A stretch of 64,000 bases of DNA from a phage, in assembly GCA_021537435.1 (NCBI GenBank), contig GCA_021537435.1_3050.1. One strand, 5' to 3'. Every line of letters begins with the position of its first letter. Position 1 is the first letter of the stretch. Positions 3,281 to 60,546 of the stretch are shown here, one piece after another. The notes under the pieces are model-generated. The model did not search any database and was not told where the DNA came from. It worked only from the letters and a program-made list of their open reading frames with translations. A program made the position numbers and the translations under genes.

Positions 3281-3783
3281 TTAAAAATATTTTTTAAAAC
3301 TCATCATAACTTTATCATCAACATCATTATCAATCTGTGCTACAAGGTAAGATGACAGTTCTACTTCTTGTGGCGCGGATTGAACATTATCAGAATTAAG
3401 ATATTCACGAATCCAAGGATACGGATGTTTAACCGGAGCATCAGTAATTGGGCATGGAAGACCGCACTGTTTCATACGAGATACAGTTAAGTAATCAATA
3501 AAGCTCCACATGCTATTTGTATTTAATCCAGGAACATCGCCATCTTTAAATAAATGAACTGCCCAGTCTTTTTCTTGACGGTTAACTTCCATGAAAATAT
3601 CAACTGCTTCTTGTTCACACTCTTGAGCAATTTTAACCCATTCATCGCCATCAGTACCAGATTGAAGTTGACGAATAATATATTGGGTGCCTTTAAGGTG
3701 AAGCTGTTCATCGCGTGCAATGAACTTCATAATCTTGGCATTACCTTCCATGATTTCCATGTTTTTATGGAAGTTGAAAGTAC
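3281..3783 (-). CDS. nrdB: ribonucleotide reductase small subunit, exon 2
   Basis: in-frame ...TFNFHKNMEIMEGNAKIMKFIARDEQLHL... to stop; R2 C-terminal half; exon sizes sum to 388 codons. Confidence 0.85.
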
Positions 3784-22884: not shown

Positions 22885-27004
<4,120 letters not shown>

Positions 27005-38845: not shown

Positions 38846-40666
38846 CTATTGGCTCATCCATTCTTTACGAAGATCAGCATTATCTCCCATGAGCATTTCA
38901 AAAAGCTCTTTCCAGTTCTCAGGAAGTTTAACAACATCATATACTGGGTTTTGAATCATCTCACGATATTCAGATTTTTCCAAAGAGCCAAGTCCTTTAA
39001 TATAACGGATGCTATGTTTAGGTAGAGCATCTTTGGCACTCTCATATTCAGCGACTGTATAAAACCATTCTTGTTTTTTACCGACCTGAGCGATGATTAC
39101 AGGAGTTTTGACAAAGCGAATTCTTCCTTGCTCAAACAATTCTGGCCAATTACTAAAAAATCCGAGCAGAGAAGGATAAATGCTTCCTAGACCATCATGG
39201 TCAGCATCAGTCATAATAGCGATATTATGATAATTCAAGTTTTCAGCTTTTTCACCGAGAACTAGACCAGTGATTGCGCAAATATCAAATAGTTCTTTGT
39301 TTTTAAGCATATCTGCATAAGACATACCCCAACTGTTGAGAACTTTACCACGTAATGGATAACCACCATGAAGTTCTTTATCACGAACATCAATAAGATA
39401 TCCGATAGCAGAATCACCCTCAGTCAAGAAAAGAGTAGTGTCAGCATCTTTACCGCAAAGATTCGCTTTAATATGTTTATGAACCTTTGCCTTAGAGGCC
39501 TTTTTAGCTGCTTTAGTTTCAGCTGCTTTTTCTGCTGCCAATTTACGAGCCAAGGCAGCTTCAATAATTGGCATCAAAATAGCTTCATTATTTAGAATAG
39601 CGCGTGAAATCTTTTTAGCATCAAGTTGAATATGACTACGAATTTCACCAAATGGAGAAGTCAAACGCTCTTTAGTTTGAGAGTCAAATCGCATGTTTTT
39701 CATATCGCGAACAAACATAACGATAGTCAAACATTCTTTAACACGTGCTTTAGTTACATCAATTTTGAATTTACGTTTGATTTGTGGAATAAGGTCTTCA
39801 CAAATATCATCCATAACACAGTCAATGTGATGGCCACCATTCTTAGTATGAATGTTATTGACGTACGTCAACTGACGAAAACCATCCGGTGAACGACCAA
39901 CCGCAATAGAACAATTTTCTTGTTCTTGAACAATAGCATGTTCATCATACTGTCGTGCATATTTCTTAAAATTGCCCTGAACCTTTTTACCATTAAAGGT
40001 AAATTGAATATCAGGATAAACAACTGCGAGTGTCTGGAGACGATCCAGTGTAATGTCAAGATAAACTTGGGACAGCTCATTAGTTTCAAATGACATAAAA
40101 TCAGGAATGAAAGTAACACGAGTTCCTTTCCATTTTCCAGGAATATCTTCCCATGATTTATTTTCCATGCCATTTGAACAACGAACTACAATATTATTTT
40201 GACCGTCGCCAGTTTCACCAACAAACATCACAGAAAAAATGTTTGTCAAACTAGAACCAACACCATTCATACCGCCAGTGACGCGTTCTTTATCATCACC
40301 AAAGTTACCACCTGCTTTTGGAATAGTCCATGCAGCAACAGGACCAGGAATTTCTTCACCAGTAGGTGTTTTAACCATAGCCTGTGGAATACCACGACCG
40401 TTATCTTCAACTGTTACCTGATTATTTTTAATAGTAACATTAATTTTATTTGCGAATTTAAACTTAGTACGAATACCTTCATCTACTGAGTTATCGATAA
40501 TTTCATCAATAAGCTTAACAAGACCAGGTACATACTGAACACTTTCCCATTTACCAAACAGAAAGCGCTCATGCATTTCATTAGCAGAAGAGCCAATGTA
40601 CATGCCGCTACGCTTTTTGATATGTTCAATATCGCTCAGAATTTTAATTTCATTCTTAATCATCAC
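38846..40666 (-). CDS. 39: DNA topoisomerase II large subunit gp39 (GyrB-like), single uninterrupted 606-aa ORF
   Basis: GHKL ATPase motifs (DNGRGIP) and TOPRIM region in one frame; no separate gene 60. Confidence 0.9.
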   Translation of the reverse strand: MMIKNEIKILSDIEHIKKRSGMYIGSSANEMHERFLFGKWESVQYVPGLVKLIDEIIDNSVDEGIRTKFKFANKINVTIKNNQVTVEDNGRGIPQAMVKTPTGEEIPGPVAAWTIPKAGGNFGDDKERVTGGMNGVGSSLTNIFSVMFVGETGDGQNNIVVRCSNGMENKSWEDIPGKWKGTRVTFIPDFMSFETNELSQVYLDITLDRLQTLAVVYPDIQFTFNGKKVQGNFKKYARQYDEHAIVQEQENCSIAVGRSPDGFRQLTYVNNIHTKNGGHHIDCVMDDICEDLIPQIKRKFKIDVTKARVKECLTIVMFVRDMKNMRFDSQTKERLTSPFGEIRSHIQLDAKKISRAILNNEAILMPIIEAALARKLAAEKAAETKAAKKASKAKVHKHIKANLCGKDADTTLFLTEGDSAIGYLIDVRDKELHGGYPLRGKVLNSWGMSYADMLKNKELFDICAITGLVLGEKAENLNYHNIAIMTDADHDGLGSIYPSLLGFFSNWPELFEQGRIRFVKTPVIIAQVGKKQEWFYTVAEYESAKDALPKHSIRYIKGLGSLEKSEYREMIQNPVYDVVKLPENWKELFEMLMGDNADLRKEWMSQ

Positions 40667-56408: not shown

Positions 56409-56771
56409 TTAAAAGAATTTAAATTTTTTCTTTGACCTTTTATTAAATGCATCTTGTAGTTGCATTGTAATACATTTTTCTACATGAGGAGCTAACTCAG
56501 CTTTTCTTTCTTGGTCAAGAACAGCAAAGTCCATTACGACTTTTCCATCAACCCAATCTAATTTTGTCACATACACAATGTGTGTAGAACCGTCTTCTAG
56601 TTTAATGACAATCTCCTGGATAACATTTTCCATGGCAGATTTAATTATCTTAAGAGATTCATTAAAAAGACGTTCTTTTCTTTCTTCTTCCCCCTCCGAA
56701 GAGGGGGATTCATCGATAATTTCTAGATCTAAATCTAAATCATCTTTATTCATTAAATTCTTCCATATCAC
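56409..56771 (-). CDS. acidic hypothetical protein (T4 gene 40 position)
   Basis: 120-aa ORF between uvsX and 41. Confidence 0.45.
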   Translation of the reverse strand: MIWKNLMNKDDLDLDLEIIDESPSSEGEEERKERLFNESLKIIKSAMENVIQEIVIKLEDGSTHIVYVTKLDWVDGKVVMDFAVLDQERKAELAPHVEKCITMQLQDAFNKRSKKKFKFF

Positions 56772-57927
56772 TTAACTGATCTAGGTCAGTTTCTAAATCA
56801 GCTGCTGATTTACTTTTACTTTCTGGAGATTTAAATTTTTCAACCTTTGAGTTAATCAATTCATCAACTTCAGCTTCAACAATTTCATTACTATCAATAG
56901 CACCTAACTGATAAGCACGTTTAATAGCATCTCGGAATGGCTGATGCTTAAATAAAGGACCCCAGAATGTAGTGCAGTTGGTATCTTTTGCACGCCAAGA
57001 TTTTTCTTCGCGAATCATCTCACCGGTTTCTTCGTCAAGAAATTCACGAGCATACCAGCCATTTTTAGGTTTTACCACAAATCCTAATTCTAGAGCCATA
57101 TCTAACAATCCAGAATAAGGATCGATGCCACCGTCAAATTTAACATCAATAAAGAATTTACTTTTTTCTTTAACGGTACGAGATTTTTCTACATTTAGAA
57201 CAAATTGATACCCCTGAAGATCAGAACCATCTTTAATCTGGCGCTTACCGATAATGAATACAGTATCAGCCGAATACATTACGCCTGTACCACCTGTCAT
57301 CACGGTTTTACTAAACATTTCAATTGTTTCAATTGTATGGTTAACCGCAACACATGGAATGTTTTTAATACTAAAATAAGGAGTAACAATACGGAATAAT
57401 GACTTCAGTGATTTAGCACGAGTCATATCTGCCACAGATTTTTCATTCAAGGCATCTTCCGTTTCTTTCTTAGAAGCCATATTACCAATTGAGTCAATGA
57501 ATACAATAACTTTTTCACCACGCTCAATAGCTTCAAGCTGATTCACCATATCAATTTTCAGCTGTTCAACTGACTGAATTGGTGTATGAATTACTCGTTC
57601 CGGGTCAACTCCCATGGATCGCAAATAAGCTGGAGTAATACCAAATTCGCTATCATAGAATAGACATACCGCGTCAGGATATTTGTTCAAATACGCCGCA
57701 ACCATGGTCAAAGACATATTTGATTTAAAGTGTTTAGAAGGACCTGCAAAAATAGTTAAACCAGACTGCATACCACCATCAATCGCACCTGAAATAGCGA
57801 TATTAAGCATTGGGATTTTTGTACGGATTACATCCTTTTCATTAAAGAATTTAGATGTAGTCAGTTCAGCAGTCATTTTAGAAGTGGAAGCTTTAATCAA
57901 ACGGGATTTTAAATCTGCAATAGACAT
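56746..57927 (-). CDS. uvsX: UvsX recombinase (RecA-like)
   Basis: 393-aa ORF MSIADLKSRLIKASTSKMTAELTTSKFFNEKDVIRTKIPMLNIAISGAIDGG... Confidence 0.9.
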   Translation of the reverse strand: MSIADLKSRLIKASTSKMTAELTTSKFFNEKDVIRTKIPMLNIAISGAIDGGMQSGLTIFAGPSKHFKSNMSLTMVAAYLNKYPDAVCLFYDSEFGITPAYLRSMGVDPERVIHTPIQSVEQLKIDMVNQLEAIERGEKVIVFIDSIGNMASKKETEDALNEKSVADMTRAKSLKSLFRIVTPYFSIKNIPCVAVNHTIETIEMFSKTVMTGGTGVMYSADTVFIIGKRQIKDGSDLQGYQFVLNVEKSRTVKEKSKFFIDVKFDGGIDPYSGLLDMALELGFVVKPKNGWYAREFLDEETGEMIREEKSWRAKDTNCTTFWGPLFKHQPFRDAIKRAYQLGAIDSNEIVEAEVDELINSKVEKFKSPESKSKSAADLETDLDQLSDMEEFNE

Positions 57928-58004
57928 TCATTTTTTCCATAGGCATCATTATATTTTCCTCACTGGTTAAAGATAAAGTAATTATAACACAATAAATTTA
58001 GGCA

Positions 58005-58853
58005 TTAATCAACTGCTATTGGATGAATAGCATTAAACTTATGAAACGCTTCTGATTTTTCTTTGCGCGAAACACACATGCGAAGAACCTTTAATGGCTC
58101 ATCTTCTTCACCCAACGATTTTCTCTTTTCAATATTCGATGTTTTCCAACGAGCTTGCTCTGGAAACTCTCTATTGATTTGCTCAAGAGCTCTATTATGT
58201 TTTGAATTACTACGAATTGAACTACATCCGCCGGGAGCCTGTGCTTTTCCAGATACAACCAGATATTTGAACAAGGCCAAATGCGGATAACCTTGATTAA
58301 TTAAATTGAGAAATGCATACATATCTTCGCATAAATCAATTTTTCCATACCCAATTTGTTCTGTCGTAAGTTTTCCAAGGTCATACCATGTATTCGTGAA
58401 TCCATATGAATTTTCACGATAATTACCCCAAGATGAAGTAATTTTAAAAATAGGCAGACGAGCATGACCATGATAATACCCGCAATCCATGGCATCTTCA
58501 ACGTATTGAATCAATTCATAGAACTGTTCACGGGTTAATTGATTAATTTTATCTACGCAGCGACGATCATCTTTCTTTCGCATTGAACTCATACGAATAG
58601 TAGTATCATCATCAATCATCCAAATTCGTTGACCTGCATACATATCAGTAATTGCTTTACGAGTACCAGCAATTCCATTAACATCATCAGGAATAGTTAT
58701 AATTTTAGCTCTAGACCCATAAGCGTCATAATAAGCTTTTTCTTCGTGTTCACGTACTACAATATGTGGTTCATAATCAGTCGGAAACATATCAAGGGCA
58801 GAAACTGCCCCTACGCGTTGATAGCTTGGAATTACGAATTGAATCATTTCCAC
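58005..58853 (-). CDS. DNA glycosyltransferase, GT-A fold with DxD motif (likely T2/T6-type beta-glucosyl-HMC alpha-glucosyltransferase)
   Basis: 282-aa ORF with QRIWMIDDDTTI; sits at the T4 beta-gt locus between 42 and uvsX but does not resemble T4 beta-gt. Confidence 0.6.
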   Translation of the reverse strand: MEMIQFVIPSYQRVGAVSALDMFPTDYEPHIVVREHEEKAYYDAYGSRAKIITIPDDVNGIAGTRKAITDMYAGQRIWMIDDDTTIRMSSMRKKDDRRCVDKINQLTREQFYELIQYVEDAMDCGYYHGHARLPIFKITSSWGNYRENSYGFTNTWYDLGKLTTEQIGYGKIDLCEDMYAFLNLINQGYPHLALFKYLVVSGKAQAPGGCSSIRSNSKHNRALEQINREFPEQARWKTSNIEKRKSLGEEDEPLKVLRMCVSRKEKSEAFHKFNAIHPIAVD

Positions 58854-59584
58854 TCACCGTTATAATCTTTTTTCGCAATATGAGTTTCGCCAGTTTTCCA
58901 CCAATGGTCAACCAAATAAAAATGACGGGAATACACGTGAAGGCTCCCGACATTCCATATAATGGAACCTGCTTTATACTGACGAGTTGAATCACCTGCA
59001 TTCAAATCAGATACTAATTTATCTAGTACGTATTTTTGCCATGCATAATCATTACGGAATCCGAAGACCACGTCATTTGAACGCATGCTTACTACTGCAT
59101 TGACTTTCTTATCACGAATCAGGTACTGTACTGTATTCGTACACATGAAATCTGACATACCATCTTTATTGTAGTCAAACTGCATGGATGGACGAGTATA
59201 AATCATGATACCACGTCGAGAATCAGGATTTTGACCAAGTTCAGCTAAACACATATCATACTGGGCATAGTTATCTTCTGACCAGATGGCCCAACCATAA
59301 TTCGAGTTAATTTCGCCTTTAGAAGATGCTACCTGTTGCCAAATCTTCGGTGTTTCGCCCGGAATATCTTTAACAAACAAACTTTTAGATTTATACCATT
59401 CAAGTTCACGCTGAATGTATTCATCATTAAGAGCGCCAAAAATAAACGGTTCATCTGCTACAAATGATGCGCCAATAATTTCAATAGTTTTAACGCCAGT
59501 TTTATCAATTACGAAATCTTTTTCCTTTAACGCAATTCCCAAATGAAGACGAGTTTCTTCAACTGTCAAAGAGTCATTAATCAT
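58844..59584 (-). CDS. 42: dCMP hydroxymethylase gp42
   Basis: 246-aa ORF MINDSLTVEETRLHLGIALKEKDFVIDKTGVKTIEIIGASFV... Confidence 0.9.
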   Translation of the reverse strand: MINDSLTVEETRLHLGIALKEKDFVIDKTGVKTIEIIGASFVADEPFIFGALNDEYIQRELEWYKSKSLFVKDIPGETPKIWQQVASSKGEINSNYGWAIWSEDNYAQYDMCLAELGQNPDSRRGIMIYTRPSMQFDYNKDGMSDFMCTNTVQYLIRDKKVNAVVSMRSNDVVFGFRNDYAWQKYVLDKLVSDLNAGDSTRQYKAGSIIWNVGSLHVYSRHFYLVDHWWKTGETHIAKKDYNGEWK

Positions 59585-59737
59585 TTAAACCTCAATTGAT
59601 ACATTCATATTTAACTTGTAACAGTAATAAACTCCACCCTATAATAAGCGTTGGAATCATACAAGGAACCGTTACGCTATAGTATATACTTATTATAATC
59701 ATCAAGATTAAAAGCAATACTGTTAAAATTTTGCTTT

Positions 59738-59989
59738 TCATTCCTTCTCTCTGATGATAATTACTTGATTTTGCTGCACAGATTTTTTAGTTTCACCCGC
59801 AATTGACCAAATAAATGTAATAAACCAACCAATAATTGACCAGTTAAACAGTAAAGATGTGAAAAAGATTCCTACTGTCGATTTTGACCCGCGCATCAAG
59901 GCGATGAACCATGGAAGCATGTATATAATAATAGCCAACACGCATGAAACTAAAACCATAAAAATTGAACCTGCTACTAAAGTTTCCAT
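59738..59989 (-). CDS. imm: immunity (superinfection exclusion) membrane protein
   Basis: 83-aa ORF with two TM helices. Confidence 0.7.
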   Translation of the reverse strand: METLVAGSIFMVLVSCVLAIIIYMLPWFIALMRGSKSTVGIFFTSLLFNWSIIGWFITFIWSIAGETKKSVQQNQVIIIREKE

Positions 59990-60523: not shown

Positions 60524-60546
60524 GAAAAAGGGACCCGGAGGTCCCT
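60524..60546 (-). terminator. rho-independent terminator downstream of gene 43
   Basis: hairpin GGGACC/GGTCCC followed by U-run (minus strand). Confidence 0.55.

Follow-up and report, generated by a model that had tools for sequence, protein, structure and literature searches.

A predicted glucosyltransferase gene of the T2/T6 type at the gene 42–uvsX locus of a Tequatrovirus

The DNA analysed here, a stretch of 64 kb referred to as the window, comes from a Tequatrovirus whose identity to the Shigella phages sb3 and pSs-1 and Escherichia phage ECp13 is about 97% across 25 kb. The six-frame list of open reading frames (ORFs) of the window contains a 282-aa ORF with a GTG start on the minus strand at 58005..58853. 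This ORF is real and has gene 42 and uvsX as its neighbours, as claimed in the initial annotation, and PHROG profiles confirm the identity of both (Table 1). The gene, designated ba-gt with ba-GT as its product, occupies the same slot in T2, T6, pSs-1 and phage 107. The placement of gene 42 is syntenic with that in T4, T2, T6 and pSs-1, and beyond gene 42 the window carries imm, an imm.1-like gene and gene 43 encoding DNA polymerase in the T4 gene order.

The length of 282 aa given by the initial annotation holds for the longest ORF, but the protein itself is likely to be 280 aa long. An ATG at 58847, two codons inside the longest ORF, overlaps the stop codon of gene 42 as ATGA. In T2, pSs-1 and phage 107, the orthologues are annotated from the equivalent ATG, which gives a coding sequence of 843 nt for 280 aa, and P0001, a metagenomic cluster representative of 280 aa, begins at the same ATG. 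Because of the ATGA overlap, the annotated starts of the orthologues and the start of P0001, the ATG at 58847 is most likely the start codon of ba-gt. The GTG at 58853 was rejected because it is merely the start of the longest ORF and the orthologues use the ATG. Through the ATGA overlap, ba-gt is translationally coupled to gene 42. Neither the G+C content of ba-gt (0.35–0.38), which equals that of its flanks, nor its distribution, with copies in hundreds of relatives, points to a recent foreign acquisition. A terminator-like hairpin at 58793–58813 inside the 5' end of the ba-gt coding sequence is kept in the T2 and T6 DNA, but it was given no weight because the surrounding coding sequence is equally conserved in these phages.

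Table 1. Features at the ba-gt locus of the window
Feature	Position	Strand	Description
uvsX recombinase	56746..57927	-	393 aa; PHROG 97, 1e-109; downstream flank
Spacer between ba-gt stop and uvsX start	57928..58004	-	77 bp; TAATGCCTAA, 13 nt, TATAAT (57981-57986)
ba-GT/TAGT (beta-glucosyl-HMC-alpha-glucosyltransferase) coding sequence, predicted	58005..58847	-	280 aa plus TAA stop at 58005-58007
E174-D175 (C-E-D)	58323..58328	-	first residues of helix 174-184 (model)
DxD-type motif D79 D80 D81 (GAT GAT GAT)	58605..58613	-	C-terminal end of strand 74-79 in the model
Gene 42, dCMP hydroxymethylase	58844..59584	-	246 aa; PHROG 160, 6.8e-66 (thymidylate synthase/dCMP hydroxymethylase family)

The spacer between ba-gt and uvsX contains a TGCCT box 13 nt upstream of TATAAT. 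The spacer has no -35 hexamer, and a sigma-70 scan found no full -35/-10 site in it. By comparison with T4 middle promoters, it resembles a MotA-dependent middle promoter, and so it presumably contains a putative promoter of this type for uvsX. In T4, segA, a gene for a GIY-YIG homing endonuclease, lies between beta-gt and uvsX (T4, L002 3563–4400), whereas the window, T2, T6 and pSs-1 lack segA and have just the 77-bp spacer at this position. On the other side of gene 42, the interval between gene 42 and imm contains a 49-aa hydrophobic ORF (59592–59741, minus strand; PHROG 3610, unknown function), which overlaps imm by 4 nt. The annotations of pSs-1 and phage 107 include this ORF, whereas those of T4, T2 and T6 leave about 150 bp empty at this point. 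A G+C-rich hairpin with 7 perfectly paired bp at 60529–60546 (AGGGACC-CGGA-GGTCCCT) lies just past the stop codon of gene 43; on the minus strand it leads into a T-run, and it is probably the terminator after the DNA polymerase gene.

Two genes distant from the locus are also of T2 or T6 type. The large subunit of topoisomerase II is encoded by a single 606-aa ORF (38846–40666, minus strand), and its C-terminal part matches the small-subunit profile (PHROG 7229), so that this ORF is an unsplit T2-like gene 39. In T4, the gene is split into genes 39 and 60, and translational bypass is involved. The gene product 38 (gp38) of the window is 263 aa long (26213–27004, plus strand; PHROG 2056, 'tail fiber protein; host specificity', 2.6e-109), and it corresponds to the adhesin of T2/T6 type, which remains at the fibre tip, and not to the short T4-type gp38 chaperone.

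The ba-GT protein of the window is identical to the pSs-1 protein at all 280 positions, and a 100% identical protein is found in at least three independent phage isolates. Full-length comparisons with the T2 and T6 enzymes, to which the initial annotation had pointed, give 276/280 identical residues (99%) for T2 and 274/280 (98%) for T6. The few substitutions include K92 and I101 of the window protein, which are common to pSs-1 and phage 107. The likeness to the T2/T6 enzyme (gene ba-gt/ggt) extends to the length, the locus, the ATGA coupling to gene 42, the DDD motif and the GT-A fold. The protein scores 38.8 bits with PF20691 (TAGT, TET-associated glycosyltransferase), for which the gathering score is 27.5, over positions 2–205 of the 205 positions of the profile, and it also matches PHROG 842, 'beta-glucosyl-HMC-alpha-glucosyltransferase', with a value of 1.9e-89. 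The Pfam scan gave no match of ba-GT to PF09198, the family of T4 beta-GT. High identity to T4 beta-GT had been named beforehand as evidence against a T2/T6-like pattern; BLASTP between the ORF product and this 351-aa enzyme yields noise (best E = 3.4), in agreement with the lack of resemblance noted at the outset. These similarities make it highly probable that the ORF encodes a T2/T6-type ba-GT (TAGT), a transferase of the second glucose on already glucosylated DNA. Support for this assignment comes from orthology and family membership, the fold, the conserved motifs, synteny and the intact reading frame; the chemistry and the defence phenotypes are taken from the literature.

A PDB sequence search found no solved relative of ba-GT, the best hit being a chance match with E = 0.78. 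An AlphaFold2 model of the window protein, built from ten homologues, has a mean pLDDT of 70.9 and a pTM of 0.75, with low confidence in four loops (residues 87–100, 130–149, 194–210 and 278–280). The model has an alternating strand-helix topology, in which an acidic DxD-type motif follows the fourth strand, and matches GT-A/GT2 structures, in keeping with the earlier classification as a GT-A type DxD glycosyltransferase. The RIWMIDDDTTI string reported in the initial annotation is present in the sequence, and its three aspartates, D79, D80 and D81, do not vary among 10 homologues with identities as low as 32%. By analogy, D79-D80-D81 may bind the metal and the UDP-sugar. D175 is invariant and E174 is nearly invariant in the family, and a comparison with the 'ED/TED' motifs of GT2 enzymes makes this pair a candidate catalytic-base region. 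The motifs and the topology of the model fit an inverting, metal-dependent GT-A enzyme, from which a beta linkage would be expected with UDP-alpha-glucose as the donor. An AlphaFold3 model of T6 TAGT has also been described as GT-A, sister to GT2 (PMC13216743). Cellular inverting GT-A enzymes of GT2 (BcsA, SpsA, TarS and AvpGT) share just 9–14% identity with ba-GT. Unlike these enzymes, ba-GT would have DNA-bound glucose as its acceptor, and the phage proteins constitute a Pfam family of their own.

The 1-kb region around ba-gt has megablast matches in 528 phage records, in which the gene is repeatedly annotated as beta-glucosyl-HMC-alpha-glucosyltransferase. A tblastn search finds a ba-GT homologue in 690 phage records, of which 472 reach at least 95% identity, and copies of about 64–66% identity are present at the same locus in T4-like phages of Klebsiella, Enterobacter, Citrobacter and Salmonella. 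Just 29 records contain DNA of a T4-type beta-gt, and all of these are T4 or its closest relatives. With 690 records against 29, ba-GT is the norm at this locus in T4-like coliphages and T4 is the exception. The 'different' glucosylation pattern proposed in the initial annotation is thus different relative to T4 but is the majority arrangement within Tequatrovirus. T4 beta-GT (b-gt) occupies the same slot downstream of gene 42 and shares with ba-GT the role of UDP-glucose-dependent transfer to modified phage DNA with a beta linkage. However, T4 beta-GT has a GT-B fold (PDB 1JG7, as cited in PMC13216743) in place of the GT-A fold predicted for ba-GT, and its acceptor is hmC itself, whereas that of ba-GT would be the glucose of alpha-glucosyl-hmC. 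The records of RB55 (KM607002) and RB59 (KM607003) label a T4-type beta-gt as 'beta-glucosyl-HMC-alpha-glucosyl-transferase', and that of AR1 (NC_027983) names a TAGT-type gene 'b-gt'. Since the names are swapped in these three records, product names alone are unreliable for separating beta-gt from TAGT.

Orthology with the T2/T6 enzymes supports the T2/T6-like gentiobiosyl-hmC implied by the initial annotation, and the pattern in the DNA of this phage would arise as follows. The gene 42 product would make hydroxymethyl-dCMP, so that the phage DNA is replicated with hmC, and an alpha-glucosyltransferase (alpha-GT) encoded outside the window would add an alpha-linked glucose to hmC. As an inverting GT-A enzyme, ba-GT would then bind UDP-glucose and a divalent cation through D79-D80-D81 and attach a second glucose to the first one at its 6-OH in a beta-1,6 linkage to produce gentiobiosyl-hmC. 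The identity of 98–99% to the T2/T6 enzymes suggests that beta-1,6 transfer from UDP-glucose to alpha-glucosyl-hmC is the catalytic activity of ba-GT. The bulkier disaccharide may alter which host defences act on the DNA, giving partial protection from Brig1, an alpha-glucosyl-hmC glycosylase, while the DNA would still be a target of GmrSD/BrxU-type systems. Neither alpha-gt nor T4 beta-gt is present in the 64-kb window as judged by tblastn with the T4 genes (best E = 0.33). In T6 and in pSs-1, the closest relative, alpha-gt lies 6.7–7.6 kb beyond gene 43, and so alpha-gt of this phage would be expected at about 70 kb, about 7 kb past the right end of the window. Because the window contains no alpha-gt, the step forming the acceptor is deduced from these relatives.

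The T2/T6 enzyme adds the second glucose to alpha-glucosyl-hmC to produce gentiobiosyl-hmC (PMC13216743), and the T6 reaction is known as beta-1,6 transfer from UDP-glucose to alpha-glucosyl-hmC DNA (PMC11078745; Kuno and Lehman 1962 cited in PMC13216743). A ba-gt deletion mutant of T6 loses gentiobiosyl-hmC, retains solely alpha-glucosyl-hmC and becomes more sensitive to Brig1, and Brig1 fails to degrade the DNA of wild-type T6 in vitro (PMC11078745). The combination of alpha-GT and TAGT is the common one (PMC13216743). In Tequatroviruses of the Durham collection with this combination, the position of TAGT is syntenic with that of T4 beta-GT, and HPLC/MS detects alpha-glucosyl-hmC and alpha-gentiobiosyl-hmC but no beta-glucosyl-hmC (PMC13390438). 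The enzyme of one Durham phage, Some, is 98.6% identical to the window ba-GT, and about two-thirds gentiobiosyl-hmC has been reported for this phage (PMC13390438).

The degree of diglucosylation varies considerably, gentiobiosyl-hmC being about 5% in T2 but about 70% in T6 as well as in several of the Durham phages (PMC11078745, PMC13390438), and three Durham phages show intermediate ratios (PMC13390438). As this spread occurs among phages with nearly identical enzymes, carrying the gene does not by itself set the pattern. Both T2 records (AP018813, L004 3283–4125; PV648363, L008 201–1043) carry the R11H and P251S substitutions in ba-GT. Across the family, including members with as little as 32% identity, Arg-11 is invariant and Pro-251 nearly so, and the window ba-GT has both residues, like T6 and phage Some. 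A tentative and somewhat doubtful explanation, given as a correlation only, is that the low gentiobiosyl-hmC level of T2 could be due to a hypomorphic enzyme with R11H and P251S, in which case the window phage would be of the high-gentiobiosyl type. If true, this would represent natural allelic variation of a known enzyme and not a new system. Alternatively, ba-gt of the window phage might contribute as little as that of T2, leaving its DNA essentially alpha-monoglucosylated. The T2 gene, 99% identical and yet associated with about 5% gentiobiosyl-hmC, and the intermediate Durham phages speak for this alternative, but the window has R11 and P251 as in T6 and Some instead of R11H and P251S as in T2, which again is a correlation only, and so limited a contribution of ba-gt is considered unlikely.

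It is far less probable that ba-GT glucosylates bare hmC directly as an analogue of T4 beta-GT to produce monoglucosyl beta-hmC. The position of ba-gt at the T4 beta-gt locus would agree with such an activity, and distant TAGT homologues are present in phages without alpha- or beta-GT, so that some of them may use other acceptors (PMC13216743). However, the window protein is 98–99% identical to the T2/T6 enzymes, loss of the gene in T6 abolishes gentiobiosyl-hmC and leaves alpha-glucosyl-hmC (PMC11078745), and the Durham Tequatroviruses with alpha-GT and TAGT contain no beta-glucosyl-hmC by HPLC/MS (PMC13390438), all of which argue against such an activity.

Public T6 records contain lesions in ba-gt. 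MH550421 (L006 4895–4980) has TAG in place of CAG at codon 10, and its coding sequence is annotated from Met-20 as 261 aa, and AP018814 (L003, about 3735–3745) is missing one GAT of the GAT-GAT-GAT repeat, changing DDD to DD. These lesions could be mutations in phage stocks or sequencing errors. The window ba-gt has neither of them (compare 58605–58820). The idea that the ORF is a decayed, non-functional remnant draws on the lesions in these two T6 records, but it has hardly any chance of being correct for the window copy, which is full length with every family-invariant residue, encodes a protein 100% identical in at least three independent isolates and is coupled in translation to gene 42. 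Nothing contradicts the assignment of the ORF product as ba-GT.

The finding is correct but ordinary in that the gene, its position, the GT-A fold, the role in gentiobiosyl-hmC formation and the effects on Brig1 and GmrSD/BrxU are already known; the fold, the synteny and the defence role of ba-GT have been described in papers of 2024–2026. For the window, the assignment is a routine annotation. The sugar pattern on hmC decides whether T-even phage DNA is visible to McrBC/McrA, GmrSD/BrxU, the Brig1 glycosylase, CRISPR-Cas and type II restriction, and so distinguishing ba-GT from a T4-type beta-GT helps to predict the host range of such phages and to choose enzymes for handling their DNA.
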